64,000 nucleotides of DNA from Candidatus Levybacteria bacterium RIFCSPHIGHO2_01_FULL_41_15 (GCA_001782165.1 MFNV01000005.1:545-64544), one strand, 5' to 3'; positions 31,326-48,259 are shown, counted from the stretch's first letter. Notes: generated by a model not told the origin, from the letters alone. Made by a program: numbers and translations.

Positions 31326-32111
31326 ATGTTACATTTAATAAATGGAAAAGTTTTGCTATCAGGAGCAACAATTCTGGCAGCTGCTGCTCTGGTGATCGGC
31401 GCCACATTCGCATTCTTCAGCGATTCCGAAATTTCAGAAGACAACACTTTCATAGCAGGTAGCGTTGATCTAAAAGTTGATGATACAGCATCATATCTTG
31501 GTCAACCAGTTTCGGGAAGCACTTGGAACGAAACAGATTTGACAAATGAAAAGTTTTTTAATTTTAACGACATAAAACCAGGTGATTATGGTGAAAATAC
31601 AATCAGTCTTCATGTAGTTGATAATGATGCATGGGTCTGTGCAACCATTAATAATATGGAGGATGAAGAAAATACATTTCTTCAAACAGAACTCGATACA
31701 CAAAATGACGATGGAGTAGCAAGTGGAGAACTTGCAGAAAACTTAAACTTTTTTGCTTGGGCTGATGATGGTGATAATGTCTGGGAATCAGGCGAATTTC
31801 CATTGTTCTCTAACACAATAGGTCCTGCAAGTGATGTCCTTGATGGGGTAATTTATTCTTTGGCTGACTCAACTACCGATGGTGGGCCATTCATTGAAAG
31901 CCAAACTAAATTCATCGGTTTAGCATGGTGTGCAGGAACTCTGACAAATCCTGGTAACGAATTAGGCAATATGACTGGAAATACTGGCTTGAATTGTGAC
32001 GGTAGCTCTTTGGGGAACGAAGCCCAAACTGATTCTGTTACCGCTGATATTACTTTTACAGCAGTGCAACACAGAAATAACCCAGATTTCAGTTGTCAGT
32101 CACTAGATTAA
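31326..32111 (+). CDS. Secreted TasA/camelysin-like protein with a SipW-cognate class signal peptide
   Basis: N-terminus KVLLSGATILAAAALVIGATFAFFSDSEISEDNTFIAGSVDL matches the SipW-cognate signal consensus (A-x-F-S-D-T/S-E...NTF-T/A-AG-x-x-DL) of TasA/CalY family proteins. It lies immediately upstream of a SipW gene. Confidence 0.6.
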   Translation: MLHLINGKVLLSGATILAAAALVIGATFAFFSDSEISEDNTFIAGSVDLKVDDTASYLGQPVSGSTWNETDLTNEKFFNFNDIKPGDYGENTISLHVVDNDAWVCATINNMEDEENTFLQTELDTQNDDGVASGELAENLNFFAWADDGDNVWESGEFPLFSNTIGPASDVLDGVIYSLADSTTDGGPFIESQTKFIGLAWCAGTLTNPGNELGNMTGNTGLNCDGSSLGNEAQTDSVTADITFTAVQHRNNPDFSCQSLD

Positions 32112-32227
32112 TAGAAAATTTTAAAAGGGTGGGGAAGAAGCGATTTGGAAACTTTCCCGCCCTGGGGACTTAGGCAGATAAAATATTAAATTTTAAAAAT
32201 AAAAAATCAATTCTCTTGGGAGGATTT

Positions 32228-33262
32228 ATGAGGAGTGTATTTAAATTATTAAATATAGTTATAGCAGGAGTGCTCATATTCATAGCGATTGGAGTTGCTT
32301 TTATTGCATTTCCGCAATTTGGAAATCAGGCTTTAATTGTCCGCTCAGGCTCAATGAGTCCCACGATAGATGTTGGATCGGTAGCAGTTATTAAAAAAAC
32401 TGACAGTAATACTTATAAAACAGGAGACGTTATCGCATTCAGATCTGAAAAAAATAAAGAAACAATCACAACTCATAGAGTAGTAGATGCGGTTATTGAA
32501 GGGAATCAAATATTTTATAGAACTCAGGGTGATGCGAATGATGATCCAGATGCAGGACTTGTTAGGCCCGGAAACATTTTGGGAAAAACATACATAGTAA
32601 TTCCTTATGTAGGACAAGTCCTTGCTTTTGCAAAATCAGACATAGGGTTTCCAGCACTCATTATATTTCCGGCAGTTTTTGTAATACTAATTGAAGTTTG
32701 GTCTATCATTAAAGAGGTTCGCAAGAGAAAGGAGCTGAGGGATAGCCTCGGGTTTGTAAATTATGATTTAAAAAGAAGTCATACAAAAAATTTATTTACA
32801 TTAAAATTATTAATTCCCCTTCTTGTTATAAGTCTTTTTATCCCAAGCACATTTGCCTTTTTCAGCGATTCAGAAACATCAACTGGTAACACCTTTACGG
32901 CAGCAGCAAGCTTTCCGCAGACAAGTAACTTATTCGTAAGCAACGGATACACCTGTTCAGGAGGAGCATCAGATACATCTGTCAGCAAAGGTACAGTCAC
33001 AATTGCTAAAACATCCGATCTTAAGATATCCGTTACTTTGGTGGGAACCATTCCAAATACTTCATATGATTTGTGGGTAAACCAAGATCCTGGTGCTTGC
33101 CCACTTTCCTCGCCTACAGTTTCTGGTTTTATCACAACAGATGGAAGCGGAAATGGATCTAATACATTAAATAATCACACGCTAGTTAGTTCTACAATAA
33201 ATTTTTGGGTAAGTATGGTTGGGGGCTCAGATGTATTGCGAAGTGCAGCTGTAAGTTTTTGA
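32228..33262 (+). CDS. sipW: SipW-type (S26B, ER/archaeal-type) signal peptidase I fused to a C-terminal domain that carries its own SipW-cognate signal motif
   Basis: N-terminal half: TM, then SGSMSPTIDVGSVAVIKK...GDVIAF...TTHRVV (catalytic Ser and His of SipW-like peptidases), then a second TM. C-terminal half: LLIPLLVISLFIPSTFAFFSDSETSTGNTFTAAASF, a second copy of the cognate-signal motif, followed by a ~140-aa Ser/Thr/Gly-rich domain. Confidence 0.65.
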   Translation: MRSVFKLLNIVIAGVLIFIAIGVAFIAFPQFGNQALIVRSGSMSPTIDVGSVAVIKKTDSNTYKTGDVIAFRSEKNKETITTHRVVDAVIEGNQIFYRTQGDANDDPDAGLVRPGNILGKTYIVIPYVGQVLAFAKSDIGFPALIIFPAVFVILIEVWSIIKEVRKRKELRDSLGFVNYDLKRSHTKNLFTLKLLIPLLVISLFIPSTFAFFSDSETSTGNTFTAAASFPQTSNLFVSNGYTCSGGASDTSVSKGTVTIAKTSDLKISVTLVGTIPNTSYDLWVNQDPGACPLSSPTVSGFITTDGSGNGSNTLNNHTLVSSTINFWVSMVGGSDVLRSAAVSF

Positions 33263-33263
33263 T

Positions 33264-34322
33264 ATGAAAAAGGGGATTTTGACATTATTATCGTTAATTT
33301 TGATTGTTGCCGTTGTTATCAGTTTCAACGTTTTGGGTTTGTTTGAAAAAAAAACAGTTTATGCCGTAGGAGACTTAACTGTTATTTGGCAGACTGATCC
33401 TTTGTTTAATGAAAGCAATATTCTTCCTGGATTTTCGCAAACTAAAACAGTAAATGTTGCAAATGGCGCTCCAACGCAACGCCCTATTGGTGCTCGCGGA
33501 GATCTTACGTCAGATCCGGGAAACATGGACAGTGTTTTGAATATAGAAATTAAGGAAGGCGCGACTGTTTTATATTCCAATACTCTTGAGAATTTTTTCC
33601 TAGATTCCGCAGGCCCCGATGGCATTCCCCTATCGACTTTAGGATCAGGAGCAAATACCACTTATGATTTCACTGTTACATTTGATGAGGCTTCGGGGAA
33701 TGAGTTTCAAAATCAGACAATAATATTTGATCTTACGATTGGTATTTCTTTTGTTCTGCCAACAACCTGCGAAAATATTAACTTTCCAAATCCACCCATT
33801 TTTGGAACGGCAGGAAACGATAATATTTCAGGAACCGTACGAAACGATTTGATAATCACTTTTGAAGGAGTCGATAGGATTTCATCTGGAGTTGGAAATG
33901 ATTGTATTGTTACCTCTGGCGGAGGAAATGACAAGGTCACAACAGGGGTTGGAAATGACGTAGTTGTAACAACAGATGGAGATGATGATATAAATTCCGG
34001 AGTTGGAAATGACACTATTGATGCAGGAAATGGAAATAATAAAGTTAACGCAGGAGTTGGAAATGACAAGGTCACAACAGGGTCCGGCAGTGATGATATT
34101 CATCTGGGAGTGGGAAACGACAGCGCAAGCGCCGGCGGAGGAAATGACAAAGTGGTGGGAGGAACCGGCAATGACATAGTTGATGGAGAAGAAGGAGATG
34201 ATGATCTTGCGGGAGGGGTAGGAAACGATAATTTAGTGGGAGGATTAGGAGTGGATAAGGTAAATGGAAATATAGGAATAGATACTTGCGATGCCGAATC
34301 GGAAACAAATTGTGAAATATGA
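33264..34322 (+). CDS. Secreted/signal-anchored protein with ~13 tandem RTX-like nonapeptide (beta-roll, Ca-binding type) repeats
   Basis: N-terminal hydrophobic anchor. The C-terminal region is SGVGNDCIV-TSGGGNDKV-TTGVGNDVV... (x-G-x-G-N-D-x-U-x repeated about 13 times). This matches the GGXGXDXUX hemolysin-type calcium-binding repeat. Confidence 0.55.
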   Translation: MKKGILTLLSLILIVAVVISFNVLGLFEKKTVYAVGDLTVIWQTDPLFNESNILPGFSQTKTVNVANGAPTQRPIGARGDLTSDPGNMDSVLNIEIKEGATVLYSNTLENFFLDSAGPDGIPLSTLGSGANTTYDFTVTFDEASGNEFQNQTIIFDLTIGISFVLPTTCENINFPNPPIFGTAGNDNISGTVRNDLIITFEGVDRISSGVGNDCIVTSGGGNDKVTTGVGNDVVVTTDGDDDINSGVGNDTIDAGNGNNKVNAGVGNDKVTTGSGSDDIHLGVGNDSASAGGGNDKVVGGTGNDIVDGEEGDDDLAGGVGNDNLVGGLGVDKVNGNIGIDTCDAESETNCEI

Positions 34323-34390
34323 TTTTAATTAAATGTAAAAGTGGAACCATCCTTCACTAAAGTTTTTGATGGCGAAGGGAGGTGAAAAAA

Positions 34391-34744
34391 ATGGAGGTTA
34401 AAAAGAAAATTGCAGCTGCCATAATTTCAGGTTCTCTTATTGCAGGAGCAATTCTGCCTGTTGCTGCTTTTGCAGATCAGACGTGCACTATAAGAAATAA
34501 CGGCAACAACTCAACAAATAGATGCAGAATAAAGGTTGAAAGAAGAGTTACGGTAGATCAGAGAAATACTGCTACGGTGAGAACCAGAGTTATAGTTGTT
34601 CAAAATACAGGTTTAAATGATGCGAACAACAATACGACAAACGGCGGAGATGTCACTGTTGACACGGGAAACACAACTTCTACAATCACGATAACCGTTT
34701 CCGGAAACACCAATACTGCGGTTCCGCCTGATCCAGGTCCATAG
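34391..34744 (+). CDS. Small secreted Asn/Thr-rich protein carrying one copy of the N/D-rich repeat module
   Basis: Signal peptide (KIAAAIISGSLIAGAILPVAAFA). NNNTTNGGDVTVDTGNTTS matches the NTGGD...TGN core shared with the 35329-39980 proteins. The SD GGGAGGTG precedes the ATG at 34391. Confidence 0.4.
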   Translation: MEVKKKIAAAIISGSLIAGAILPVAAFADQTCTIRNNGNNSTNRCRIKVERRVTVDQRNTATVRTRVIVVQNTGLNDANNNTTNGGDVTVDTGNTTSTITITVSGNTNTAVPPDPGP

Positions 34745-34769
34745 AATAGGATTTAAAGCTGTTCTAAAA

Positions 34770-34795
34770 CTGCCCCGCTTTTTGCGGGGTAGTTT
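34770..34795. terminator. Bidirectional rho-independent terminator-like hairpin between convergent genes
   Basis: CCCCGC-TTTTT-GCGGGG hairpin with T/A-rich flanks. It is placed between the stop of the 34391 gene (+) and the stop of the sortase gene (-). Confidence 0.45.
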
Positions 34796-35342
34796 ATTCT
34801 GTGGGTTTGGCAAAGACAAGAAGTCTTTGAAGAGATGTTCCTATGGGAACACAGGTCTGAAGTATTAACTGATCTTTCTTATTGTCTAATAAATAATCAA
34901 CCTCATTGGGCCAAACAGTTTTGGTTTCAAAAACCTCATATTGAAAACTTTTGCCGTTTCTTACTATATTAATCCTATCTCCTTTTCTAAGCTCTGGTAA
35001 TCTAAAAAATGCCTTATTATACCTTGTTATTCTCCAGGGAAGATCAGATGAGTGAGCAAATAGAAAGCTCGTTCCTTTTTCTCCCGGCAAAGATGTACCT
35101 TTTGCATGGGCGATCCCTTTCTCGAGTTTTTTCCTGTATTCTTTTTCATTAAATGGATCAACATTCTCCAAAACATTGTATCTGGCTTTGATTTGGGGAA
35201 TTTCGATGTAAAAAGAACTTACTGTTTTTGTTTCATAAGAAGGACTAAGATATAAAGCGATAATCGGATAATAAATGAATGCCAGTAATAAAAGAGAAAA
35301 CGCCATTAAGGCGTTTCCAATAAACTTTCTATATGGTTGCAT
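34794..35342 (-). CDS. Sortase family transpeptidase
   Basis: N-terminal TM anchor. FLFAHSS carries the catalytic His. DQLILQTCVP is the TLxTC catalytic Cys motif, followed by the conserved Arg region. It sits immediately downstream of an LPVTG protein. Confidence 0.7.
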   Translation of the reverse strand: MQPYRKFIGNALMAFSLLLLAFIYYPIIALYLSPSYETKTVSSFYIEIPQIKARYNVLENVDPFNEKEYRKKLEKGIAHAKGTSLPGEKGTSFLFAHSSDLPWRITRYNKAFFRLPELRKGDRINIVRNGKSFQYEVFETKTVWPNEVDYLLDNKKDQLILQTCVPIGTSLQRLLVFAKPTE

Positions 35343-36465
35343 AAAGAGGTGGGGATGGATCTGAACCAAAGCGCAAATACCATCCCGCAAGAAGCATTGT
35401 AAGACACAAAAGTGTCATTAGCAACAGCCAGTAATTACCTGTTACAGGGAGAACTCCTCCGATTGCCGCTCCCAAAACTTGTCCTGCTCCCTCAGAAACT
35501 TTGCCATCTCCGCCTCCTGAAGGAGACGGGGCACCTGGCGGCTGTACCGAAGGTCCTGGCGGACCTCCTGGTCCCGGTCCTGGCCCTCCCCCCGGAGGTG
35601 GAACAATCTCTTTCTCGCAACATAATTTAGCAAAAGATCCGTTAATATCTTCATTACCTATCTCTATGACACTTACAATATCCCCCGTAACAATAAGAAC
35701 TGCTCCGTTATTACCGTCTGCAGTATTTCTTCCCGTATTTGCGTTATTGACAGCATTATTATATATATAGGCAAAATTATTGTTATCATAATTCAAGTTG
35801 TTATCAAGCGAGAAATTGACAGAGTTTATTGACCCGTCGGCATTATTTAAAATACTAATATTTGTAGAATTCTGAGGGAATCCGTATTCAGCAAAACCAA
35901 AATTTATTTTTTTGTTTTTTATTATAGTTGCCAAAGTTATATTTCCGGTATCAATAGCAACATCTCCATTGTTATTGTTAGCCTGATTCTCTCCGGTGTT
36001 TGCATTGTTATATGCATTATTAACAATTACTGCCGAGTTGGACTGCGTAACATCAACATCATTTAAAATATCCAGATTAATACTGTTCGTTGAATCCGAA
36101 CCATTATTTTTTATATCAACAGACGTCTGGGATTCGCATTGCCCGCAAGGATCTTGCGCAAAGTTTGTATTAATATTTTCATTTGTAATTGAAGAGGTGC
36201 TTTCTATGTTTCCTGTGGTAATGTTTGCATCGCCGTTGTTTGAAGAAGTGGAATTTTCTCCCGTATTTGCATTTGTTTCTACATTATTATCTATTTCGGC
36301 ATTATTTGTCTGCTCAACAGTTGATGAAGAAGTATTGTTAATCTGAACATTGTTACTCGATCCTGCGCCGTTATTTGATACGGTAATGTCTTCTGCGAAA
36401 ACACCGGATACTGCAAACAGACCGGCCATCAAAAGTATCAAGGATGAAAATATTTTCCTTATCAT
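35329..36465 (-). CDS. Secreted Asn-rich repeat protein with a Pro/Gly-rich stalk and a C-terminal LPVTG sortase sorting signal
   Basis: Signal peptide MIRKIFSSLILLMAGLFAVSGVFA, with SD GGGGAGGA upstream of the ATG at 36465. Repeat modules as in the neighbouring genes. The C-terminus is PPPGGGPGPGPGGPPGP...GGVLPVTGNYWLLLMTLLCLTMLLAGWYLRFG. This is LPXTG plus a hydrophobic segment plus a basic residue. Confidence 0.6.
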   Translation of the reverse strand: MIRKIFSSLILLMAGLFAVSGVFAEDITVSNNGAGSSNNVQINNTSSSTVEQTNNAEIDNNVETNANTGENSTSSNNGDANITTGNIESTSSITNENINTNFAQDPCGQCESQTSVDIKNNGSDSTNSINLDILNDVDVTQSNSAVIVNNAYNNANTGENQANNNNGDVAIDTGNITLATIIKNKKINFGFAEYGFPQNSTNISILNNADGSINSVNFSLDNNLNYDNNNFAYIYNNAVNNANTGRNTADGNNGAVLIVTGDIVSVIEIGNEDINGSFAKLCCEKEIVPPPGGGPGPGPGGPPGPSVQPPGAPSPSGGGDGKVSEGAGQVLGAAIGGVLPVTGNYWLLLMTLLCLTMLLAGWYLRFGSDPSPPLYATI

Positions 36466-38618
36466 TTGATAATCCTCCCCATAAGTATTAATGCTTTTTT
36501 TCTTAAAATAAATCCTATTCCTAAGACCGGCAGTGCCAAAAACGCCCACGCCAGATTGATATCCACTTTCTTTTTAGAATTATCTTTCTCGGAACTATTT
36601 ACGCCTAACGTTTGGGTGTCTTGAGAATCTTGAGATGGTCCCGAAGCAGCTGCAAAAAGATTTCCGGCAGTCGCACCGGCCAAAACTCCGCCGACAAACG
36701 GAACTGAGTTTCCTGAAATTGCGGAATTTCCCGATCCTCCTCCCCCACCCGGAGAAGAAGATGGAGGATTAGAATCATTGCTTGGTAAACTTTCCGACTG
36801 AGGTGGCCCTCCTACCCCCGCTATATTATCATCATTGTCTTTTTGTGCTCCGGGTGTTACAAAATCCCCCATCCAGCTTCCGAAAACATTTACGAAAGTA
36901 ACGAGAAGTCTTCCTCCTACAATATTGTTGTTTACAAAATTAACTAAGTTTACAATTACTTTTGCATCCCCTGTTGTAATGTAACTGTCTCCTCCAGTAT
37001 TGTCATTTGCCGAATTTTTCCCTGTATTTGCTGATAAATATATATTGTTATTTACATCTGCATTATTTGTCTGATCTATGTGCTCTTTTGTACTTTGATA
37101 AACTTTTGCATCGTTGGTTGACTCGGAACCATTATTTGAATTAATTGCCGTTATTTCTCCATTTTCATCAACTGCAAATTCTGTTCCCTGTGATCCTGCA
37201 AACATTGCACCCTGTGGCGCTCCTACAATCTGCCCTATCCACTGCCCAGCTCTATTTATAATTACAAGCCACCAATTCCCGCCGACTATATTATTGTTTA
37301 CTATGTTTAATACCTGCGCAGTTACATCGGCATTCCCCGTTGTTATATAACTATCCCCGCCTGTATTTCCGGATGCTGAGTTTCCGCCCGTGTTTGCGGT
37401 CAATATCAGATTATTATCTATATCCGCAACATTTACTTGGTTAATTGTATCTATAACTATTTGATCCGAAGAAACATTATTGTCAGAATTTGAACCGTTT
37501 CCAGAGTTTATCAAAGTAGTGTCCCCTCCGCATGTCGCGCAAGCAAATGCAGATAGAGCCGACTCAGAAAGAATAATGTCTCCAATTAAGTCTCCGAAGA
37601 TATTAACAACCCCAAGTATTACATTTCCGGCAAGGTTATTATTTAAAAGTGTCAGAACATTTCCTGTAACTGATGCATCACCTGTTGTGACATATGAATC
37701 CCCACCTGTGTTACCTGACGCAGCGTTGTCTCCCGAGTCAGCCGTTAAGTAAAGATCATTGTTAACTGTACCATTATTAGCTTGATTCGTTGTGTTAGTG
37801 GTGTCTGAGTTTATAGTGGCATCATTATCAGAATTAGAACCATTATTGGAGTTTTGAGCAAGACCTGTAAATCCGTCGCATCCCGATACGCAACCGGCTC
37901 CAAAATCAAGTATGTAATCACCGGTGTGATCATCTACTATGTTAAACTCCGCGACTGTAACCCCATCGATGTTCGTATTGGCGGAGGTTATTATAGTCCC
38001 CGTTGTTGAAGCATCTCCCGTATTGATAAAGGAATCCCCTACATTATCAGACGCTGAATTTTGCCCTGAAACACTTGCTCCCGTAAGTCCATTTTGAATA
38101 CCCGCACTGTTTGATTGATCAGTTGTGCTGGTATCGGTAACTGTTGCAGAACTAGTGTTCGTGGATCCCGAACCATTTCCATCATTTACTATTCCGATTC
38201 CACCACTGGCGCAGCAGTCATCATTCCCTGCAAGATTTGAATTAGCAGTGGTGAAAATATTTCCATCACTATTTGCATCTCCGGTATCTATAAATGTGTC
38301 TCCAACATTACCATCTGATGATGTACCCCTGGAAACATCTGCCTCAGGATTACCTTCAGTGGATACGACGGGGTCATCCGGATTGCTATCGCTTTCCGGA
38401 ATTTCAGGAATTTCTTCCACCTCATTATTGCTACTGTTTTCCTCGGGTTGTTGCGGAGCTTCCTCAGGCACAGTTGCTGGGATTTCTTCGGTTTCATTTA
38501 TCTCCTCAACCTCCGCCGCTTCCGGGGCTTCAGAAGCCTCTGCAAAAACAGAAGAAGCTCCACCTAAGACAAGGTACAGTACCAAAAATATTGCCAGTAG
38601 TTTCCTTAAATTACTCAT
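36462..38618 (-). CDS. Large secreted protein (718 aa) built from repeated N/D/G/S-rich modules, with a C-terminal hydrophobic segment
   Basis: Signal peptide, then an acidic Glu/Pro-rich linker. Then come about 5 modules of type NGSNSDN...V.Q.N.A.V.N...L.A.TG.N.A.GNTGGDSY.TTG.A.V, each followed by a short hydrophobic stretch. The end is LAWAFLALPVLGIGFILRKKA. Confidence 0.55.
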   Translation of the reverse strand: MSNLRKLLAIFLVLYLVLGGASSVFAEASEAPEAAEVEEINETEEIPATVPEEAPQQPEENSSNNEVEEIPEIPESDSNPDDPVVSTEGNPEADVSRGTSSDGNVGDTFIDTGDANSDGNIFTTANSNLAGNDDCCASGGIGIVNDGNGSGSTNTSSATVTDTSTTDQSNSAGIQNGLTGASVSGQNSASDNVGDSFINTGDASTTGTIITSANTNIDGVTVAEFNIVDDHTGDYILDFGAGCVSGCDGFTGLAQNSNNGSNSDNDATINSDTTNTTNQANNGTVNNDLYLTADSGDNAASGNTGGDSYVTTGDASVTGNVLTLLNNNLAGNVILGVVNIFGDLIGDIILSESALSAFACATCGGDTTLINSGNGSNSDNNVSSDQIVIDTINQVNVADIDNNLILTANTGGNSASGNTGGDSYITTGNADVTAQVLNIVNNNIVGGNWWLVIINRAGQWIGQIVGAPQGAMFAGSQGTEFAVDENGEITAINSNNGSESTNDAKVYQSTKEHIDQTNNADVNNNIYLSANTGKNSANDNTGGDSYITTGDAKVIVNLVNFVNNNIVGGRLLVTFVNVFGSWMGDFVTPGAQKDNDDNIAGVGGPPQSESLPSNDSNPPSSSPGGGGGSGNSAISGNSVPFVGGVLAGATAGNLFAAASGPSQDSQDTQTLGVNSSEKDNSKKKVDINLAWAFLALPVLGIGFILRKKALILMGRIIK

Positions 38619-38744
38619 AATTTCTAAAGTTTAAAATCTGCTATTTAACTTTTTAAATCTCAAATTTTAAATTTCGGTGCTTCTGTTTTGTAGGGTATCC
38701 TCCCGAAGTGCCAGGGAGGACTACCCTACAAACAGAATTACATT

Positions 38745-39980: not shown

Positions 39981-40157
39981 TTATGTTGTCACCTCCTCTC
40001 CTTTTTAGATTTCCTTTCCCCCCTCTTTTTTGAAAAAAAGGGAGAGGTTGCACTTTCTAATCCGTTTTTGTTTGAAACAAAAACGGAGGCTCCTTCATCC
40101 GATCCACCAATTAGCAGATCCGGTGAAAAAGCCTCCGTTTGCGGTCAGCTTGTTATA

Positions 40158-40397
40158 TTAGTCTATATTTGTAAGTATATTTGTGTGTTTTCGATTTGTC
40201 AATACCTGTTTTTCATTCTTACTATTTTCTAACCGTTTACTTTCATCTCTTGTTGAAACTCTGGTCTTCTTGATATTCTTAACTGTAATCTGAGTAACTA
40301 CATTATCCTGAACATAGATCTCAACACTTCCCCACATCAGATCTTTCAAAGCCGAGTTTATTTCATCTACAAGTTGCGCCGTTGCCTTCTTGTTCAT
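40158..40397 (-). CDS. YezD/DUF2292-like small protein
   Basis: WGSVEIYVQDNVVTQITVKNIKKTR resembles the DUF2292 core (G-x-V-x-I-x-V-Q-D-G-x-V-x-Q-I-x-x-x-E-K). Confidence 0.4.
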   Translation of the reverse strand: MNKKATAQLVDEINSALKDLMWGSVEIYVQDNVVTQITVKNIKKTRVSTRDESKRLENSKNEKQVLTNRKHTNILTNID

Positions 40398-40398
40398 G

Positions 40399-41103
40399 TT
40401 AAAATTTTATGCTAATTTCTTCTTTCTTACCGGAGATTTCGCCTACCCGTAATTTTAGATTCCTATCCGTTTCGTTTATGGCAAACCCTACTCTTGTATA
40501 CTTTGTTGAAATTGGTTGTACCGAAACGGGGTCATTGTGGATATCAGGCGCTAGGAATTCATTTTTATTATTTACAGAAAGTCTTACATAATCAGATGTT
40601 TTTATTTCTATTGCCTGTGTGTATTGATTTATTAATTTAAGATCTAGAACAAGAAAAGTTCTACCCCGTACGGCTCTTGCCCGCTGACCCTTTACGATTA
40701 TAGAGTCATAAAGCCCTACCGTTTCTATCTTATACTTAAGAGTGCTTACCACATTTCCCTTATTATCCTTTATAGGAAACTCCATTTCTTTGTTTATGAT
40801 TTTTGTTGCTTTTGCCACTGATGGTGCAGGTTTTTCGTTTTCGTTTCCAACTATATTTACTACTTTTCTTCCAAAGAATAAAAATCCACCTAGAATTAAA
40901 ATTACAATAATAATAAAAGCAACCGGGAGTATTAAATTTCGATTCTTAAAATTTCTGAATAGATTAGAACTGAGAACCTTACTCAAGAGTACCTTGGTTT
41001 TTTCTTTTATATTCTGGGCTGGGTTTAAAGTTGAAAAGAAATTTCCAAAATTTCGAGGATTCAAAAGACGAGCGCGTCTTGAGGGTAAAGTGTTTTCTTC
41101 CAT
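40399..41103 (-). CDS. Signal-anchored protein with a DUF4352-like beta-sandwich domain
   Basis: N-terminal TM. RAVRGRTFLVLDLKLINQYTQAIEIKTSDYVRLSV resembles the DUF4352 consensus. Confidence 0.4.
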   Translation of the reverse strand: MEENTLPSRRARLLNPRNFGNFFSTLNPAQNIKEKTKVLLSKVLSSNLFRNFKNRNLILPVAFIIIVILILGGFLFFGRKVVNIVGNENEKPAPSVAKATKIINKEMEFPIKDNKGNVVSTLKYKIETVGLYDSIIVKGQRARAVRGRTFLVLDLKLINQYTQAIEIKTSDYVRLSVNNKNEFLAPDIHNDPVSVQPISTKYTRVGFAINETDRNLKLRVGEISGKKEEISIKF

Positions 41104-41117
41104 AATTATTATTAAGT

Positions 41118-41142
41118 AAAAAAAAGCCCCTTTTACGGGGCA
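41118..41142 (-). terminator. Rho-independent terminator (minus strand)
   Basis: On the minus strand this reads GCCCC-GTAAAA-GGGGC followed by a U-tract (plus strand AAAAAAGCCCCTTTTACGGGGC). It lies 60 nt downstream of the 41205-41717 gene. Confidence 0.5.
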
Positions 41143-41204
41143 GGCTGCTCTTGGTAGCTCGGACTATAACAAAAGGAGAATCCCTTGTCAATACCCAACA
41201 AGTT

Positions 41205-41717
41205 TTACTTTTCAAGATAAACTGTTATTTCTGTTTTTGAATCGGAATTTTTTTTGGAAATCTCCACATTGACTTTGAGCAAACTGTTTGCTCCTGCTAA
41301 TTTATTTAAGATATTTCTGTTTGAGGAAGTCTGGACGAAAGATTTAGCCTTCATGTTTAAACTTGTTATTTTTTCTTTATACCAGTCTGTTATCCTAGAT
41401 GAATCATCAAAACTCTGAAGACTAAGCTTATCCTCTGTTTGAAAAGAGACCGCGGATCCCGGATATATAAAAGATCCTACACTATACATAGTATTGTTGG
41501 CAGAACTTACGGGAGATGGAGTACTTTGAACTGTTGAATTATTTTTTGTCTGGTTAACAACAGTTGAAGTAGGCGTTAATGTCGGCGATGGGTAAGAGGT
41601 TGGGTTAGGAGTTGTCTGTTTTTTAACTTCCTCTGATTTATTAAAAAATGATTCCTGAGAGAAAGTAGCCAGTGCCAAAATAACAATAAGTATTATAAGA
41701 AGATTTAGGTTTTTCAT
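41205..41717 (-). CDS. Secreted Ser/Thr/Pro-rich protein
   Basis: Signal peptide. TPNPTSYPSPTLTPTSTVVNQTKNNSTVQSTPSPVSS is a low-complexity stalk, likely O-glycosylated or a linker. A C-terminal domain follows. Confidence 0.35.
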   Translation of the reverse strand: MKNLNLLIILIVILALATFSQESFFNKSEEVKKQTTPNPTSYPSPTLTPTSTVVNQTKNNSTVQSTPSPVSSANNTMYSVGSFIYPGSAVSFQTEDKLSLQSFDDSSRITDWYKEKITSLNMKAKSFVQTSSNRNILNKLAGANSLLKVNVEISKKNSDSKTEITVYLEK

Positions 41718-41806: not shown

Positions 41807-43243
41807 ATGAAAAATTTAATAAGCTTTGTTATTTACCTATCTGTTTTCTTATCGTCTTTTTATTTACCTACTGACCCCGATCTTGGATGGCATTTGAAAT
41901 ATGGGGAATACTTTTTCAAAACAGGAAGGGTCCTCAGAGAAAATATATTTTCATCAATGATGCCCGATTATAAATGGGTAAACCATTCATGGGCATCTGA
42001 TCTTTTGGTTTACTTTTCTTTTAACAAGCTGGGATTTTTTGGGGTAAGTTTACTTGGAGCACTTGTTGTAACGCTAACTTTTATTTTTCTTACTAAAGCT
42101 TTCAAACTTTCTTTTTGGGACAAGGTAATTCTTGTTCCTATTGTTCTGTATTTAGTTAGTAATGTAAATGCGGTATCTTTCAGAACGCAACTGATTTCAT
42201 ATTTTTTTACCGGAGTACTTTTCTACATTATCTTTCTTTATAACAAAAATCCTAAAAATCTCTTGTGGGCAATACCTCTTTTCTTAATTTGGGCGAACTT
42301 TCATGGAGGCTTTATTATGGGAATAATACTTCTTGTCGGTTATCTTACAATAAAAAAGACTATTGAGGCTAAGGGTAATTTTAATATTAAATTTTTGCTT
42401 AGATTGGTTAAATTTGAAATACTTGTCCTTTTAGGAATTGTACTGGCGTCGCTACTTAATCCTTTTGGATACGGAGTTTACCTTGAGTCTTTAAATCATT
42501 TTGGAAATCCATGGCTTAAGTATGTTTCCGAATGGTCTCCTTTTTCCGATCAATCCTCCCAGTGGTGGAATCTTATAATTTTTATGATTTTATATATGGT
42601 CGGCGTTGCGATTCTTTTCTTAACAGGGAAATTAAATGAAAAACTTCCGATTGCTCTTTTGATACTTCCTTTTATCGCCTTGTCATTTTATGAACGAAGA
42701 TATGCTTGGTCAATGTACTATATTTCTTTTCCTGTTCTTTTGGGAATTTCTGATTTTTTCAAACCAAATTCAAAATCAAATCAAATTATTGCTGCCGGTA
42801 TAATTTCTATCATTACTTTAGTCTTTATTCTAAGCTCTAAAGTTCCCTTTGAAAGATATCTGACCATGAACTGGAAAGAATTTTGTTTGGCTGCGGCAAA
42901 CCAGTGCTCCTTTGGAACGCTTGAATTTATTTCGGAAAATCAACTTTCAAGCAATTTATCTACTCCCTATAGCTGGGGTGGCTGGATGATTTGGAACTTT
43001 CCTGATGTTAAACCGAGTATAGATGGCAGAATGCACCTCTGGGAAGACGATAAGGGCTACAGTGCTTTTGAAGAATACTACACCAATGTTCAGAACTGGG
43101 AAAGCATTGATAAATCTAAATATGACAGGGTCCTAGTCCTCAGATCAAAACCTATGTACGGAAGGCTTATTAAACTAACAAAAGAAGGAAAATGGAGATT
43201 GGTATATGGAGATAATGTTTCGGCAGTATTTGTAAGAAGATAG
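41807..43243 (+). CDS. Polytopic membrane protein, putative GT-C (PMT/ArnT-like) glycosyltransferase
   Basis: The first loop, PTDPDLGWHLKYGEYFFKTG, resembles the D-E/D-x-W-H loop motif seen in the GT-C domain of the 2963-5527 fusion. More than 10 TM helices. Confidence 0.4.
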   Translation: MKNLISFVIYLSVFLSSFYLPTDPDLGWHLKYGEYFFKTGRVLRENIFSSMMPDYKWVNHSWASDLLVYFSFNKLGFFGVSLLGALVVTLTFIFLTKAFKLSFWDKVILVPIVLYLVSNVNAVSFRTQLISYFFTGVLFYIIFLYNKNPKNLLWAIPLFLIWANFHGGFIMGIILLVGYLTIKKTIEAKGNFNIKFLLRLVKFEILVLLGIVLASLLNPFGYGVYLESLNHFGNPWLKYVSEWSPFSDQSSQWWNLIIFMILYMVGVAILFLTGKLNEKLPIALLILPFIALSFYERRYAWSMYYISFPVLLGISDFFKPNSKSNQIIAAGIISIITLVFILSSKVPFERYLTMNWKEFCLAAANQCSFGTLEFISENQLSSNLSTPYSWGGWMIWNFPDVKPSIDGRMHLWEDDKGYSAFEEYYTNVQNWESIDKSKYDRVLVLRSKPMYGRLIKLTKEGKWRLVYGDNVSAVFVRR

Positions 43244-44449
43244 CTATCCGATCCAATACCAGTTGATAAAAAATAGGGAAACTATAAATAGTCCTGCAAT
43301 AAATACAGCGAAAACCGCCTGATAGACAGGTCCTTTTAAAACCATTGATAAATATAAAAAAAGAGGAAAAGAAACCGTTTGATGTCGTGTGAAGGACATA
43401 AGATCGGAAAACATAAGAGGTGTTAACCAAAGGGAAAAAGATACAAGCCATAACTTCAAGGGAATTTTTTTTCTTCCCAGTAAAAGAAGCTGCAATGTTA
43501 TTAAAACAACCAGTGCATCGATTTTAGAGTTATGAAACAAATGTAATGGTAGCTTTAAGAAAGAAAGAATAGATAGAAAATTGTGGAGTAGTCTTAGAAG
43601 AGGAAATTCATTTGGAACCCAACTATCTCTTATTTCAATAAGATATGACAAGCTTCCTGTCTGAAAATAAATATAAATTAGAAAAACGATAAAAGGAGTA
43701 AAAGCAAAAACGGATTTTAAAATAATCTCCTTAATTTGGTAGAAATTCTTTTTACCTTTTAAAAATTTTGTTAAATAGTAGAAGAAAACCAAATTCAGTA
43801 ATATTCCATTACCCTTCGTAATATTTAGAAGCCCCAATAATAACGATGATAAAAAATATCTATTCAGAACCAGAAAGTAAGAAAACCAAGTGATAATTAA
43901 AAGAAGCATTCCTTCCGTAAAGTAACTTCTGTAGAAAATGCTGAATGGGAAAAAGAATAAAAGAAAAATGGTTTTTATTGCCAGTTCCTCTGAGAATAAT
44001 TTCTTGATTACGAAAAAAAGACTAAAAAAATTTAAGATAAGTAAAATATTTGTTAATACGAACGCGCTTAGCTCTATGTTTTTTAAAATGATGTTGAATA
44101 CAGATATGGCAAGCGGATAAAAGGGAAAAAATGCATAGGAAAGTCCACTAAGAACTGTTTTATTCTCGGTATCAATTATTGAGGACTTTCTAGGATACCC
44201 TACGTCCGCGATTCCTAAATACCACTGAGAGTCGTATTGCCCTAATGCATTTATAAACTTGAATTTTTTTAGTATAACCCGACTATCTTGGATATAATGA
44301 TGGGCATTATTAATATAATTATTGTTATTAAAAGGTACTTTGCTGTTAAATAGGAAAATAAATAAATATAGAGCTAAATTTAAGAAAACGAAAGCCATGA
44401 GGGATAAAATAAAATTTTTACTTTTCATTTCGCTTAGGATAAATCTCAT
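43244..44449 (-). CDS. Polytopic membrane protein, putative GT-C family glycosyltransferase (PMT_2/DUF2029-like)
   Basis: GQYDSQWYLGIADVGY is an early-loop motif typical of the PMT_2-like mannosyltransferase family. Multi-TM. Confidence 0.35.
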   Translation of the reverse strand: MRFILSEMKSKNFILSLMAFVFLNLALYLFIFLFNSKVPFNNNNYINNAHHYIQDSRVILKKFKFINALGQYDSQWYLGIADVGYPRKSSIIDTENKTVLSGLSYAFFPFYPLAISVFNIILKNIELSAFVLTNILLILNFFSLFFVIKKLFSEELAIKTIFLLFFFPFSIFYRSYFTEGMLLLIITWFSYFLVLNRYFLSSLLLGLLNITKGNGILLNLVFFYYLTKFLKGKKNFYQIKEIILKSVFAFTPFIVFLIYIYFQTGSLSYLIEIRDSWVPNEFPLLRLLHNFLSILSFLKLPLHLFHNSKIDALVVLITLQLLLLGRKKIPLKLWLVSFSLWLTPLMFSDLMSFTRHQTVSFPLFLYLSMVLKGPVYQAVFAVFIAGLFIVSLFFINWYWIG

Positions 44450-44509: not shown

Positions 44510-47500
44510 TTAAAGTCCTTCTTTCTTATGTCTTCTTCTGAGGAACCAAAAGAGGAAAATAGCAAAAATAATTACAAGTGCTGTTGCTGTCATTTTTTTC
44601 CATCCAAAACCTTTGTTTATTGTAATTAACGGTTTTTCTTCGGGCGCATTCTTTTCTTCTCCTAAAACTCCCTGGGTTGGCACCGGAGAAAGCTGCGCTT
44701 CAGGAGTTGTCTCTCCCAAAACTTCAGGCGCAAATCCGGTCGCAAGGGGCGAAATTAAAGCTCCCAAGACTTGGGGCACTCCGACAACATTTCCTGAACA
44801 ATCTTTAGATCCGCAACCCAAACCGTCCGATTGGCCATCTCCTCCGCCGCCTCCGCTAGTAGTAGCAGGACTGGTAGTCGTAACGCTCTTCTCATCGCCG
44901 ACTGCTTCAGGCGATCCATGGGAAACTGTTCTGTAAAAGTAAGTAGTTCCTGAGGTAAGTCCCGAAATATCAACCGAGTGAGAAGTAACCTTGGGATCGG
45001 CGTCTTCCTCGTCGGTTGAGTTGGCATATCCGTAATTTGGCGCTCCACCAAGTGATGGATGCGAAACAGAATCATATAGAACTCTTGAAGTAGCAGGGTC
45101 ATCTGTAATCCAGGTTATTGTGACTGATGTATCCGTCACAGAGCCTGATGTTTCATCGGATATCACCGGCGCAATGCCATACTCGGCCGTCAAGACGTCG
45201 CTGGGATTACCGGCGTTATCATAGGCAATTGCCTTAAGAGTCGTATCAACACCAATAGCAATTGGATCTGTGTATGGGGTTGATGAATTATCAGGTGTTG
45301 ATCCGTCTGTCGTGTAATAGATTCCTTCTAATCCTGTTCCACCGTCATCGTTGCTGGTTAGTGTTACTGATTGGTCGCTAAAGTAGTCGCCAGCTGCCGG
45401 ATCGGCAACAGGTATTAATGGGGGTGCCCCATCTGAGGTGGACCATTCTCCGTCTTCTAGTTCATTGCCGACCGCATCGTGAGTGCTTCTCGGGTCCAGG
45501 TCCCCACCACCTGAAGGAGTATAGGTAACAGTTGGAGTCGCTCCCGTATCAAAAGACTCCCCTTCGCTGAAGGTTAAAAGCAGTATGTTGTCATTCTCGC
45601 CTTCGCCTGTACCAATTGCCTCACCGCTGTAGGGATCGTCGACATCCCAGCCGTCAGGATTACCGGGATCTAACCTTGAATCGTCAATGTTTTCGGAGAA
45701 GGTTAGTTTGATAGCATCAATCTTGCCATTTCCATTTGTATCCTGAGTTTCGGCTGATTCCAGCGTCGGTGCGGTTGTATCGACTGTAAAGGGCGCCGAA
45801 TTAGAACCGAAATTGCCAGCCGCATCAAAGGCACCGACATAAAGTGTATGTTCCCCTTCACCGGGATAATCCATACCATTGGTAAACTCTGGCCCAAATA
45901 GGGTTTCGGCTAAAGAGTCGAAAAAGCCGTCGAGCGCCTCCAAGGGCTTGGCAAAGATAAAGTCTGGGTCGTCAACCGAAAAGATTGCCGAAACTATATT
46001 GGAAATGGCATCTACAGCATCTGCCAGAATCTGCGGCGGATGATTGGTTGGATCGGGTGATGCCGAAGGAGTGGAGACAAGCGGCGCGCTCACATCATAA
46101 GTGACGTACTCAACAACCGGGCTGTTTTCGGTGTTACCAGCCATGTCTGTCGCCTCAGCTTTAATGTCAAATGTTCCTTCGGTATCCGGAGTCCAGTTAA
46201 AAGACCACTCAAATGGATCGTTGTTCTGTTGAGAATCTGGAATTTCAATCCAGGGATTTTCTTCCTCCCCGGAAGTTCGGTAATAAAAATTGACATAATC
46301 AACGGTTGTAGCTGGTTCGTCTGTTGAGCTTCCGGAAATTTCAATTGGGATGTTCCAGAAACTTCCTTCTTCGGGAGAGTCAATTGTCGAAACTGGCGGG
46401 GTCGTGTCCGCTGTGTAATAAACCCGAACCGGAATCCAGTCAAGGAAAAAGTCGCGGCCGGCATTGGTCGAGTTCATCGTTGCCCGGACACGGAAATTTT
46501 CATTAGTGAACTCGTCCGCTGTCCATTCTCTATCCCAAGTATCTGCGGCACCTCCCAAAGAAGCCACGTGTTCCTTATTGGTTTCGGTAATGTCAGATTT
46601 TGCGCCAGTCCAATCGTCTCCACCGTTCCAAGACAGTTCAACATCCAAACTATTCTCCCCGCCTGTGGCGTCCAGACGCCAATCGGTCCTGACCTCAATG
46701 CCTCTAATTGTAGAGCCATCCGGAATCTCAAAGGGATTATAGTTATAGAAAATATGACTTTCGCCCGCTGCATTATTGGTGTGACTCGCTACAGAGCCTC
46801 CATCATCAAACGCACCTTCAGGATTATTTTCAAGGCCGTTACCACCGCTGGCTTCCTCTGCAATTGGGGATTTGTAATCGGTAGGCTGGTCGGAAGGCGC
46901 CGCAAAATCAACTATCAGCTGTGGACGTCTCAGCTCATTTCCCTGATCGCTTGATCTAAATTTACCTAATTTAGCAGTACCTGAATCCTCCGCTGAATCC
47001 CGAATTGCCCAGCCGTAATTTGCTAATTCATCGTTGACAAAAGCTTGGACATCGCCTGTGACATCCCACTGGCGCCAGACATTGTTTGAAGTACCGGTTG
47101 AAGTGGTGTCTGTGGCCGCGCCTGTATCAGCCGGCTGACTATTCCAGGCTAAGGTATCCTCATCCCATCCCTCAACGACTAGGCGGGCTTCATAATCTCT
47201 CGATGATGGAGGGGCATCGAACATAAACAGCCGCAAAGTCGCCTTGGTGATTTCAGAGCCGGCAGGAATCGCTGAAGTGTCAAATTTCACGAATGTCCGC
47301 TTGTTCTCATCTGTTTTACTTCTAACATGCAGCTCATCGCCGCCGCCCTTATTGGCATCGGCATTATTCTGTTCAGCCCAAGTGTCATCAATTGCCACAA
47401 GAACACCGTTTGCAATATCATCAGTGGCATCGACGGCGTTGTCGCCGTTGACATCGTTAACCAAAACGAAAACGGTGAAATGAGTAAGTCCTTTGATCGT

Positions 47501-48259
47501 TATGGTGTCAGTTGCAACTTCTTTTGGCTCGCCTAGCGTTTGGGCATTGCCAAGATCTTCTGTCGACTCGGCACTCTTTACAACTACCTCATCCTTATTA
47601 ACATTGGCAGGTACAGGCAAAGTCAGATTATACGCAAATGTGCCGTCTGCCATCGGCGAAGTGAATTCGTAAGCCGTGTCGGAAACTGCCGAAAGCTCTT
47701 CCTGTTGTTCGCTAGATAACTTGACTTCACTGACAATCAGTTTGTCCGAGGGGTCGGGTAATTTAGTAAAAGTAATTTTTACCTTATCGTTTTGAGGAGC
47801 ACTATAAGTCTGGCCTAAGACTACATTATTTATAGTAGTCGCCTTGCCGTCATCTGCTGTTTGCCATACTGCTGGAGCCAGTTGGGCGCTTACTGCTGAC
47901 TCCGGAGAATTCTCAATTGCACTTGGGGGAGAAAGATTATCAACTGTTGCCGGAGTTGGTGAGATAGCATCTTCAGAAATATCTGATGGAGGCTGCGAAA
48001 CTTCCTCTTTGGGCATTACCAAAACTTCCGGAGTTGCAACAGTAGAATCTTGTGCTGGTATTGGTGTTATATCCGAGGATGTAGGGCTTGCCGTCGGAGC
48101 TTCGGTAAGGACTGGACTATCCTGTACAACAGTTGGGACAGGAGATACTTCATCCTCAGCGAAAGCTTTCGGAGAAACAAAAAAATTAGCTCCTGTCGAT
48201 TGGATTATAATCGACAAAAGAGTAACTCCTACTAAAAATTTTTTGATTTTGGACTGCAT
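44510..48259 (-). CDS. Giant (1249 aa) secreted cell-surface protein with Ig-like/cadherin-like beta-sandwich repeats and a C-terminal TM anchor; adhesin-like
   Basis: Signal peptide. Repeated D-x-AGN-x-S motifs (TDMAGNTENSP, FDAAGNFGSNSAPFTVDTTAPT, YDNAGNPSDV). A dockerin/EF-hand-like segment DVNGDNAVDATDD. C-terminus: KGFGWKKMTATALVIIFAIFLFWFLRRRHKKEGL. GC content is visibly higher than the surrounding DNA. Confidence 0.55.
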   Translation of the reverse strand: MQSKIKKFLVGVTLLSIIIQSTGANFFVSPKAFAEDEVSPVPTVVQDSPVLTEAPTASPTSSDITPIPAQDSTVATPEVLVMPKEEVSQPPSDISEDAISPTPATVDNLSPPSAIENSPESAVSAQLAPAVWQTADDGKATTINNVVLGQTYSAPQNDKVKITFTKLPDPSDKLIVSEVKLSSEQQEELSAVSDTAYEFTSPMADGTFAYNLTLPVPANVNKDEVVVKSAESTEDLGNAQTLGEPKEVATDTITIKGLTHFTVFVLVNDVNGDNAVDATDDIANGVLVAIDDTWAEQNNADANKGGGDELHVRSKTDENKRTFVKFDTSAIPAGSEITKATLRLFMFDAPPSSRDYEARLVVEGWDEDTLAWNSQPADTGAATDTTSTGTSNNVWRQWDVTGDVQAFVNDELANYGWAIRDSAEDSGTAKLGKFRSSDQGNELRRPQLIVDFAAPSDQPTDYKSPIAEEASGGNGLENNPEGAFDDGGSVASHTNNAAGESHIFYNYNPFEIPDGSTIRGIEVRTDWRLDATGGENSLDVELSWNGGDDWTGAKSDITETNKEHVASLGGAADTWDREWTADEFTNENFRVRATMNSTNAGRDFFLDWIPVRVYYTADTTPPVSTIDSPEEGSFWNIPIEISGSSTDEPATTVDYVNFYYRTSGEEENPWIEIPDSQQNNDPFEWSFNWTPDTEGTFDIKAEATDMAGNTENSPVVEYVTYDVSAPLVSTPSASPDPTNHPPQILADAVDAISNIVSAIFSVDDPDFIFAKPLEALDGFFDSLAETLFGPEFTNGMDYPGEGEHTLYVGAFDAAGNFGSNSAPFTVDTTAPTLESAETQDTNGNGKIDAIKLTFSENIDDSRLDPGNPDGWDVDDPYSGEAIGTGEGENDNILLLTFSEGESFDTGATPTVTYTPSGGGDLDPRSTHDAVGNELEDGEWSTSDGAPPLIPVADPAAGDYFSDQSVTLTSNDDGGTGLEGIYYTTDGSTPDNSSTPYTDPIAIGVDTTLKAIAYDNAGNPSDVLTAEYGIAPVISDETSGSVTDTSVTITWITDDPATSRVLYDSVSHPSLGGAPNYGYANSTDEEDADPKVTSHSVDISGLTSGTTYFYRTVSHGSPEAVGDEKSVTTTSPATTSGGGGGDGQSDGLGCGSKDCSGNVVGVPQVLGALISPLATGFAPEVLGETTPEAQLSPVPTQGVLGEEKNAPEEKPLITINKGFGWKKMTATALVIIFAIFLFWFLRRRHKKEGL

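Follow-up and report, generated by a model that had tools for sequence, protein, structure and literature searches.

A conserved sortase and repeat-protein cassette within a patchwork of envelope genes inserted between murA and mraY in a Levybacteria genome

The locus described here occupies positions 31,326 to 48,259 of a 64,000-nucleotide stretch of DNA (the window) from Candidatus Levybacteria bacterium RIFCSPHIGHO2_01_FULL_41_15, where it separates the two halves of the division and cell wall (dcw) cluster. Inserted where murA and mraY would otherwise meet, this island of envelope genes is a mosaic with three separable parts: a core cassette (A) encoding a sortase and a set of repeat (Rep) proteins, an accessory unit (B) encoding a TasA-like protein, a SipW-type signal peptidase and an RTX protein, and a group of lineage-specific genes (C). 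The core cassette spans 34.4–41.7 kb and comprises p170, a DUF4352 protein, a YezD-like protein, Rep-free, Rep-TM, Rep-LPXTG, the sortase and an additional small Rep protein. The same arrangement of genes was found in about 80 Microgenomates genomes at species level. We propose, with moderate confidence, that the Rep proteins and the sortase form a wall-attached surface layer or fibre in which three paralogues co-assemble. The cassette belongs to a known kind of system, sortase-linked surface assembly, and TasA-like/SipW proteins are already known in Patescibacteria. The points of interest are the cassette itself, which is conserved and uncharacterised, its unusual anchoring signals, a dedicated RNA hairpin and a new domain family of 3,338 clusters for which Pfam and NCBIfam have no model.

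Within the candidate phyla radiation (CPR), Microgenomates form a large branch without cultivated members, and to our knowledge their envelope and host-contact structures are essentially undescribed. Sortase is near-ubiquitous in the group (PMC6744442). In the literature on sortases, LPXTG proteins and S-layers of Microgenomates, CPR bacteria and Patescibacteria, only this sortase observation was found, and no description of a sortase substrate or of the cassette. The cassette supplies a conserved presumptive substrate together with two paralogous partners. The Rep domain family, the substrate and the hairpin offer handles for metaproteomics, for labelling in cryo-electron tomography and for rebuilding a surface structure of CPR bacteria in a heterologous host.

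The features of the core cassette, in the order of their coordinates, are the following.

34382..34744, plus strand: small Rep, 120 aa, secreted and basic (pI 10), with a single Rep module (i-Evalue 9e-29).
34794..35306, minus strand: sortase with an N-terminal transmembrane anchor; PF04203 at E 1e-24 and TIGR01076 at 62.6 bits (cutoff 39.35).
35329..36465, minus strand: Rep-LPXTG, 378 aa, with a Sec signal, 3 Rep modules, a Pro/Gly stalk and an end made of LPVTG, a hydrophobic segment and a basic tail.
36462..38618, minus strand: Rep-TM, 718 aa, with a Sec signal, an acidic, Pro-rich N-terminal spacer and 4 full and 1 partial Rep modules.
38676..38739, minus strand: conserved RNA hairpin directly after the Rep-free stop codon, with a consensus stem of about 14 bp and a GCACUUC loop.
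38745..39980, minus strand: Rep-free, 411 aa, with a Sec signal, 4 Rep modules and a conserved C-terminal FSFDLxxLL tail.
40040..40157, minus strand: terminator-like hairpin with a U-run between yezD and Rep-free (minimum free energy -43.6 kcal/mol, z -5.6).
40158..40397, minus strand: YezD-like protein, 79 aa, without a signal peptide; DUF2292 (PF10055) at 27.9 bits (gathering score 22).
40399..41103, minus strand: p234, 234 aa, a basic DUF4352-family protein with an N-terminal membrane anchor of one transmembrane segment.
41205..41717, minus strand: p170, with a signal or anchor, a Ser/Thr/Pro linker and a small domain.

Loci with the cassette were collected by context look-ups of three homologues and by a scan of species-representative genomes with a 10-sequence alignment, and gene presence was scored by BLASTP against the window proteins. 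The resulting 83 loci span Levy-, Gottesman-, Davies-, Woese-, Curtiss- and Chisholmbacteria. Nearly all of them share the order (p170)-DUF4352-YezD-Rep-free (~415 aa)-Rep-TM (~730 aa)-Rep with sorting signal (~370-390 aa)-sortase, and most gaps are explained by contig ends. A p234 homologue was observed in 81 of the 83 loci and a YezD homologue in 67; p170 is represented in 36, and 26 have a small Rep (<230 aa) encoded on the other strand from the sortase operon. In the closest relative (L009), the cassette is kept within the dcw cluster and Rep-free is 76% identical. Many of the metagenome-assembled genome records carrying the cassette (L009, L013, L014, L020 and others) are titled 'uncultured Gammaproteobacteria', and L086 goes under 'Nanoarchaeia archaeon'; such taxonomic labels are clearly placeholders or errors.

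A sequence-only reading of the window, which named these genes before any database search, placed all open reading frames (ORFs) at the coordinates recovered here. Its assignments of a sortase and a YezD-like protein agree with the PF04203 and DUF2292 matches listed above. Its DUF4352-like protein is upheld through the orthologues of p234, 15 of 40 of which match the family (best E 3.2e-8), the window copy itself scoring under the threshold; a PDB search with the p234 profile gave no useful match. No Pfam or NCBIfam family matched p170. The sortase start is placed at 35306 or 35342 in public gene calls, with the ORF reaching 35390, and the start of yezD directly adjoins the stop codon of the upstream gene. 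The same reading described an operon of four repeat proteins. Three of them (38745-39980, 36462-38618 and 35329-36465) do share the minus strand with the sortase, while the 120-aa gene (34382-34744) is on the plus strand, so a single operon of four does not hold.

The Rep module is 84 aa long and rich in Asn and Asp. Twelve full copies and 1 partial copy were detected in the window (i-Evalues 4e-21 to 3e-32), all within the four Rep genes, as the sequence-only reading had recognised. Across the 12 window copies, invariant positions are held by Asn, Ser, Gly and Thr, with the rough consensus I-x-NNG-x-x-S-x-N … Q-x-N-x-A-x-V-x-N … TG-x-N-x-A-x-x-N-x-GGD-x-x-I-x-TG-x-A … N-x-N. The module fits no model in Pfam or NCBIfam; the Pfam scans covered the three large Rep proteins at E <= 0.01 and, once more, Rep-free and the 120-aa Rep at E <= 5. 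When the 12-copy profile was searched against 1.84 billion representatives, 3,338 clusters (50% identity) were retrieved at E <= 1e-3, including 822 at E <= 1e-30. The named members observed were all 'hypothetical' and came from Microgenomates or unclassified Patescibacteria.

An AlphaFold2 model of Rep-free, built from a 45-sequence alignment, is all-beta (predicted local distance difference test, pLDDT, 73; predicted template modelling score, pTM, 0.64). Foldseek against PDB returned no significant match for this model, and the list consists nearly entirely of beta-solenoid proteins; the weak fold matches of the module are of the beta-solenoid or beta-roll type. A division of the module into four rungs of ~21 aa was considered and rejected, with hhalign comparisons of its quarters and halves (168-module alignment) all under 10%.

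The three Rep types are old paralogues that share the same module and differ in their modes of being held. All four window Rep proteins carry ordinary AxA Sec signals and no FFSD motif. Rep-LPXTG ends in a complete sorting signal, LPVTGNYWLLLMTLLCLTMLLAGWYLR, in accordance with the LPVTG end noted in the sequence-only reading. Among 40 orthologues caught by a motif search, 38 contain an LPxTG-type motif, in the variants LPVTG (15), LPATG (13), LPITG (3), LPMTG (2), LPISG (2), LPSTG (2) and LPLTG (1). In Woese-/Gottesmanbacteria-type loci, the third Rep protein ends instead in [IV][LIM]GLS[AD][TA]S followed by a transmembrane segment and a basic tail, which may represent a variant sortase recognition motif. 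Third Rep genes with this end were observed in L018, L020, L023, L026, L037 and L042, at about 13.5-14.9 kb in each locus.

Rep-TM shows a hydrophobic hairpin after each module, and its C-terminus consists of a Gly/Ser/Pro stalk, an INLAW motif, a transmembrane segment and a Lys/Arg tail. The motif, as [ILV]NLAW, was found in 57 Rep-TM orthologues at the outer edge of the C-terminal transmembrane anchor (window 36462-36560). This layout is tripartite and resembles a sorting signal; a cognate processing enzyme was not identified. Rep-free, in turn, has no anchor, and it lacks a sorting signal in all of the loci. It is strongly acidic (88 Asp+Glu versus 9 Lys+Arg) and is a candidate for the major subunit. 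CC, CxC and CxxC motifs occur at module junctions, at residues 111-112 and 291-293 of Rep-free and also in Rep-LPXTG and Rep-TM. They are at least 90% conserved in Rep-free, and the cassette of L004 is immediately preceded by a DsbA/thioredoxin-like gene. Together these observations suggest disulfide or metal sites.

The sequence-only reading treated the repeat proteins in general as sortase-attached. This stands for the sortase and its one LPVTG substrate, and it fails as a general rule, the sorting signal being present in only one of the four Rep proteins. The same distribution bears on the possibility that the cassette builds a covalent pilus like SpaABC/SrtC, in which the sortase would polymerise Rep proteins serving as pilins. 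As in the SpaA/B/C-SrtC pili of Gram-positive bacteria, several related secreted proteins, at least one of them with an LPXTG signal, are followed in the operon by a membrane sortase. In some lineages (e.g. L004, L039, L041 and L045) there are two LPXTG Rep proteins, and the best match among class-specific sortase models is class C. That model, however, scored only 70 bits against a cutoff of 160, and none of the class-specific models reached its cutoff. Moreover, the putative major subunit has no sorting signal, and no Lys column reaches 85% conservation in the 40 Rep-LPXTG orthologues; because no lysine is invariant there, no candidate pilin motif could be assigned. The modelled Rep fold also differs from the Ig-like CnaA/CnaB fold of pilins. 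We therefore regard a covalent pilus as very improbable.

A second alternative is that the Rep proteins act as independent adhesins for host cells or minerals, sharing a module by duplication only and without co-assembly. Adhesion would suit the lifestyle of the group, since all cultivated Patescibacteria are reported to be obligate episymbionts (PMC11623550), and a giant surface protein with a CBM96 domain is encoded next door. Rep-free, however, is unanchored and would be lost unless docked. Its architecture and length are fixed and its identity stays near 50% across class-level divergence, unlike the pattern of diversifying selection. A structure of several subunits is likewise favoured by the strictly kept gene order and by the dosage-type hairpin that follows the first Rep gene. 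We consider the explanation by independent adhesins unlikely.

A conserved, covarying hairpin follows Rep-free in most loci. The 126 nt 3' of the Rep-free stop codon fold with a minimum free energy of -47.6 kcal/mol (z -7.5). Across 80 loci, the 110 nt after Rep-free gave a median z of -5.8, with z <= -3 in 96%, versus a median of -0.1 and 0/50 for the control, the 110 nt after Rep-TM. A GCACUUC-type loop was present in 70 of 82 loci. In a MAFFT alignment of 56 hairpins, compensatory changes were observed in all 14 stem pairs. The covariation score was 0.498 versus 0.213 for shuffled alignments, of which 0/500 reached 0.498, and slid-partner controls gave 0.13-0.25. A covariance model returned a single significant match in the 64-kb window (43.7 bits), and in 1.45 Mb of loci it returned 60 matches, one per locus and all after Rep-free, with none elsewhere. 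Because the hairpin sequences were chosen by their loop motif, and most of them also built the covariance model, the informative results are the lack of matches elsewhere and the motif-independent z-scores. No family was matched in an Rfam scan of the locus. The hairpin is a candidate for a new RNA motif with a cis-regulatory or processing role, and it probably sets subunit dosage; that YezD reads it is a speculative addition.

Rep-free is also preceded by a strong Shine-Dalgarno sequence. A consensus scan for sigma-70 promoters and terminators gave counts near those of shuffled sequence (about 1.5 and 1.2 standard deviations above the mean). Two sigma-70-like sites with 11/12 matches were observed on the minus strand, at 40174-40202 in the 3' end of yezD and at 41126-41191 upstream of the DUF4352 gene, the latter immediately followed by a GC-rich hairpin and a T-run.

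Taken as a working model, the sortase would cut Rep-LPXTG at LPVTG and join it to lipid II and hence to peptidoglycan, while Rep-TM would remain held in the membrane. Rep-free, whose gene is bounded by the terminator-like hairpin upstream and the covarying hairpin downstream, would be overproduced and retained by module-to-module co-assembly on Rep-LPXTG and Rep-TM, probably bridged by Ca2+. The outcome would be a wall-attached surface layer or fibre.

The closest parallel in logic is offered by the chaplins of Streptomyces, in which the long ChpA-C are anchored by sortase SrtE and the short ChpD-H are secreted. In both cases, one domain is shared by sortase-anchored and free secreted proteins of a monoderm wall, and by analogy the anchored Rep forms would tether the free polymer. 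The resemblance is one of logic only: the Rep proteins lack the chaplin domain (PF03777) and any other Pfam match, and their module is 84 aa, Asn/Asp-rich and very acidic, whereas the chaplin domain is hydrophobic and ~40 aa long. The Rep cassette also adds a membrane-anchored third paralogue and the DUF4352 and YezD partners. An anchored-plus-free arrangement of subunits is likewise analogous to CsgB/CsgA of curli. In contrast to curli and FapC, the Rep repeat is 84 aa without a sub-period of ~20 aa, and export follows a monoderm Sec/sortase route and not CsgG. The curlin repeat was itself tried as an identity for the module and rejected, with no PF07012 match and an hhalign probability of 0.1% against E. 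coli CsgA. With RTX beta-roll and S-layer proteins, such as the RTX blocks of CyaA and RsaA, the Rep module shares Gly/Asp/Asn-rich conserved loops and extreme acidity. HemolysinCabind, however, does not match the module and is found only in the 33264-34322 protein, and the Rep proteins carry an N-terminal Sec signal.

Several points weigh against the proposed assembly. The case for co-assembly draws on shared modules, anchoring modes and gene order, and Ca2+ binding is suggested only by the Asp/Asn/Gly-rich conserved loops and the RTX-like fold matches. Because the module has no internal period of ~20 aa, its topology could be a classical solenoid, a stack of in-register modules or a series of separate domains. 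As for the hairpin, it may simply mark a site of processing or termination, or be an element acting at the DNA level. Finally, the TasA-like/SipW/RTX trio described below lies next to the cassette in 14 of the 83 loci, which looks above chance, and some functional coupling between the two may exist on that account.

In a bolder form of the wall-attached assembly, the Rep cassette would encode the main surface polymer in Microgenomates, so far unrecognised. This polymer would template its own growth and depend on Ca2+, as a cross-beta or beta-solenoid structure with one 84-aa module per layer, nucleated on the sortase-linked and membrane paralogues and extended by Rep-free, its stoichiometry set by the GCACUUC hairpin, possibly read by YezD. 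We put this forward tentatively and consider it rather doubtful as a whole. If true, it would explain the near-universal sortase in this CPR class. It would also define a domain family and a cis-regulatory RNA, both of them new, with INLAW or ILGLS[AD][TA]S as a possible new sorting motif at the C-terminus.

The accessory unit lies between mraY and the cassette and is encoded on the plus strand.

31305..32111, plus strand: TasA-like secreted protein, with its likely start at ATG 31326; TIGR04088 at 23.3 bits (cutoff 19).
32216..33262, plus strand: SipW-type signal peptidase fusion, with the peptidase at residues ~1-185; TIGR02228 at 109 bits (cutoff 51.85).
33264..34322, plus strand: secreted RTX protein; its N-terminal domain is conserved and its C-terminal part carries RTX nonapeptide repeats (HemolysinCabind E 7e-22, 7 stretches).

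The TIGR04088 match of the first protein confirms the SipW-cognate signal that had been predicted from sequence for this TasA-like protein, with PF12389 covering residues 22-62 only. PF12389 homologues are widespread in Patescibacteria (PMC9245690), and the 936 homologues recovered here, distributed across Patescibacteria, include many named as SipW-dependent or TasA family proteins; a protein recorded for a Candidatus Levybacteria bacterium is 100% identical. PDB sequence searches with the single sequence and with a profile gave nothing useful. In the structural comparison proposed in the sequence-only reading, an AlphaFold2 model (pLDDT 79.7) gave as its best two Foldseek matches in PDB the TasA fibre 8AUR (E 7.8e-4, probability 1.0, template modelling scores (TM-scores) 0.39/0.44) and TasA 5OF1.

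The second gene encodes, as predicted, a SipW-type peptidase fused to a second cognate-signal domain. This C-terminal domain of ~130 aa is joined via a third transmembrane segment and has its own SipW-cognate signal, STFAFFSDSE (residue ~212), where a second TIGR04088 match was obtained (residues 204-230, 22.8 bits, cutoff 19). Among the ORFs of the locus, only the TasA-like protein and the SipW fusion contain this motif. Hydropathy analysis of the fusion gives three transmembrane-like segments, which fit an enzyme followed by its own substrate, so that cleavage would be carried out by the enzyme itself or by another copy. The dedicated SipW would process cargo with an AFFSD-type signal, including the domain fused to it. 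Aligned by hhalign to the TasA-like profile, the fused domain reached 96.6%, in a match confined to the signal region. Against NF046067, the equivalog model of Bacillus SipW, the enzyme scored 114.6 bits, under the cutoff of 190; it is therefore classed as a SipW-type peptidase of the archaeal/ER kind and not as a Bacillus orthologue. The fusion of SipW to cargo was also observed in L011, L071, L076, L083 and L086, and as two adjacent genes in L098.

The HemolysinCabind match of the third protein bears out the RTX-like assignment, and its N-terminal domain is conserved in 13 loci. A TasA-like or TapA-like identity for this N-terminus found no support (hhalign 5%). The small Rep gene is the last of this plus-strand unit and may dock the TasA-like/SipW system onto the Rep assembly.

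In its likeness to the Bacillus tapA-sipW-tasA and B. cereus sipW-tasA-calY operons, the unit places a dedicated SipW-type peptidase beside cargo with a TIGR04088 signal, and the cargo model finds the TasA fibre and monomer as its best PDB matches. The differences are equally clear. SipW is fused here to a second cargo domain, the operon is completed by RTX-repeat and Rep-module proteins without an identified TapA homologue, PF12389 covers only the N-terminal 40 aa of a cargo with TM-scores of 0.39-0.44, and the TasA/SipW part is an accessory of the cassette and not its axis.

Family and Foldseek matches bear out the broader claim of the sequence-only reading, a cell-surface locus with a TasA-like/SipW pair, a sortase and a repeat-protein substrate. 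Its further claim, that the whole 17 kb is one machine in which a SipW-processed TasA-like fibre forms the axis, repeat proteins are attached by the sortase and GT-C enzymes glycosylate the cargo, is not supported by the comparison of loci. The parts are all adjacent in the window, a one-module Rep closes the TasA-like/SipW/RTX unit, and each Rep protein contains 10-12 NxS/T sequons that could serve such glycosylation. The trio also sits on either side of the cassette where the two occur together. Yet the TasA-like/SipW pair was found near the cassette in only 14/83 loci, or 8/46 when at least 4 kb was available beyond the sortase, and most cassette loci have no TasA/SipW within 10 kb. The trio is lacking in L009, the closest relative, and in L091 and L092, and the Rep signals are of the AxA Sec type without the FFSD motif. 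The predicted GT-C-like gene accompanies the cassette in 4/83 loci and the giant gene in 1/83, and the 478-aa membrane protein has no glycosyltransferase signature. We give the one-machine explanation little credence. The TasA-like/SipW/RTX unit is a known kind of system, accessory and dispensable, that has been joined repeatedly to the cassette, and the TasA-like/SipW systems of CPR bacteria are mobile accessories, not core components.

The borders of the island are formed by the following genes.

29996..31006, minus strand: mraY, first gene of the distal dcw half and one border of the island; TIGR00445 at E 4e-55.
48361..50154, minus strand: glmS, the other border together with the HAD-like gene and glmU.
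50193-50669: HAD-like gene, a weak call only.
50736-51989: glmU, part of the second border.

The distal half of the dcw cluster has the order mraY-ftsW-murG-ftsQ-ftsA-ftsZ, in which ftsQ is a tentative call, and beyond glmU follow murA-murC-murE-ftsI-ftsL-rsmH-mraZ. Equivalog-level cutoffs were passed by the ftsZ, ftsA, ftsW, murA and murC models and a subfamily cutoff by murE, while mraY and murG scored slightly under their cutoffs, ftsI gave family-level matches only, and rsmH and mraZ were identified by Pfam matches. The gene identities proposed from sequence thus hold for ftsZ, ftsA, murG, ftsW and mraY on one side and for glmS, glmU, murA, murC, murE, ftsI, rsmH and mraZ on the other; in the intervening group, glmS and glmU are secure and HAD is the weak call.

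The dcw clusters of relatives were compared by a metagenome scan with MraY followed by synteny analysis. Relatives with 54-74% MraY identity have murA adjoining mraY, in a contiguous mraZ-rsmH-ftsI-murE-murC-murA-mraY-ftsW-murG-ftsA-ftsZ cluster. At 67-70% identity, the arrangements murA-HAD-mraY or murA-glmU-HAD-glmS-mraY were observed, and at 82-85% identity glmS is followed by the cassette, with or without the small Rep and the TasA trio, and then by mraY. In close relatives, other envelope cargo occupies the same position upstream of mraY: L103 (1-10000) contains an alginate lyase, a UDP-glucose dehydrogenase, a GT2-beta-helix protein, an fn3 protein, a second sortase and a subtilase, and L107 (1-3000) contains DegT and FemAB genes. 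Given this graded series of relatives and the different cargo in L103 and L107, the insertion into the dcw cluster is real and lineage-specific. The split noted in the sequence-only reading is confirmed, and synteny does not show a cluster similarly divided without the locus in all relatives. The murA|mraY junction of Levybacteria looks like a hotspot that collects envelope genes.

Even where it is contiguous, the dcw cluster of this lineage is non-canonical in order (ftsI-murE-murC-murA-mraY-ftsW-murG), as seen in the window at 52-59.5 kb and 25-31 kb and in L109, L112 and L129. Between murE and ftsW the window has neither murF nor murD, and some relatives have additional Mur-ligase genes at mraY, either murC-like between murA and mraY, murE-like after mraY, or both.

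The third part of the island lies between the cassette and glmS.

41807..43243, plus strand: orphan polytopic membrane protein, 478 aa, with ~9 transmembrane-like segments and an invariant PTDPDLGWHLKYGEY loop.
43244..44449, minus strand: polytopic membrane protein, 401 aa, of a PIG-V/PMT_2-like (GT-C) family, with a conserved DSQWYLGIADVGY motif.
44510..48259, minus strand: giant protein, 1249 aa, with CBM96, an Ig-like region, Fn3_assoc/CHB_HEX_C_1, an fn3-like domain and a C-terminal transmembrane segment.

The orphan membrane protein, the PIG-V/PMT_2-like protein and the CBM96 giant are recent, lineage-specific additions. The sequence-only reading had named two GT-C glycosyltransferases. 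For the 401-aa protein there is family-level support from its homologues, of which 3/5 match PF04188 (PIG-V; best E 1.3e-7) and 2/5 match PMT_2, the window copy being under the threshold; for the 478-aa protein no family was reached by any route. Neither the window copy nor 16 orthologues of the latter had a Pfam match, a profile search of PDB at E <= 10 gave none, and the 430 homologues retrieved by a profile search of 5.8 billion proteins are all hypothetical. The 478-aa gene adjoins the cassette in 16/83 loci, the 401-aa gene in 4/83, and a homologue of the giant protein was found only in L009. As the GT-C-like and giant genes are restricted to the closest relatives, the idea that the cargo is glycosylated is speculative.

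The giant protein had been described as Ig/cadherin-like with a C-terminal anchor. Its transmembrane segment was recovered, and CBM96, Fn3_assoc, CHB_HEX_C_1 and the fn3-like Pur_ac_phosph_N scored over their Pfam cutoffs. The Ig-like part is represented by Big_13 without any single passing stretch, and no cadherin family appeared in the Pfam scan. The window is AT-rich, with a GC content of about 0.35, and the giant gene stands at 0.44-0.49; it may have been acquired recently. The same locus was also found on groundwater contigs (JGI 3300002502 and ENA ERZ28563625).

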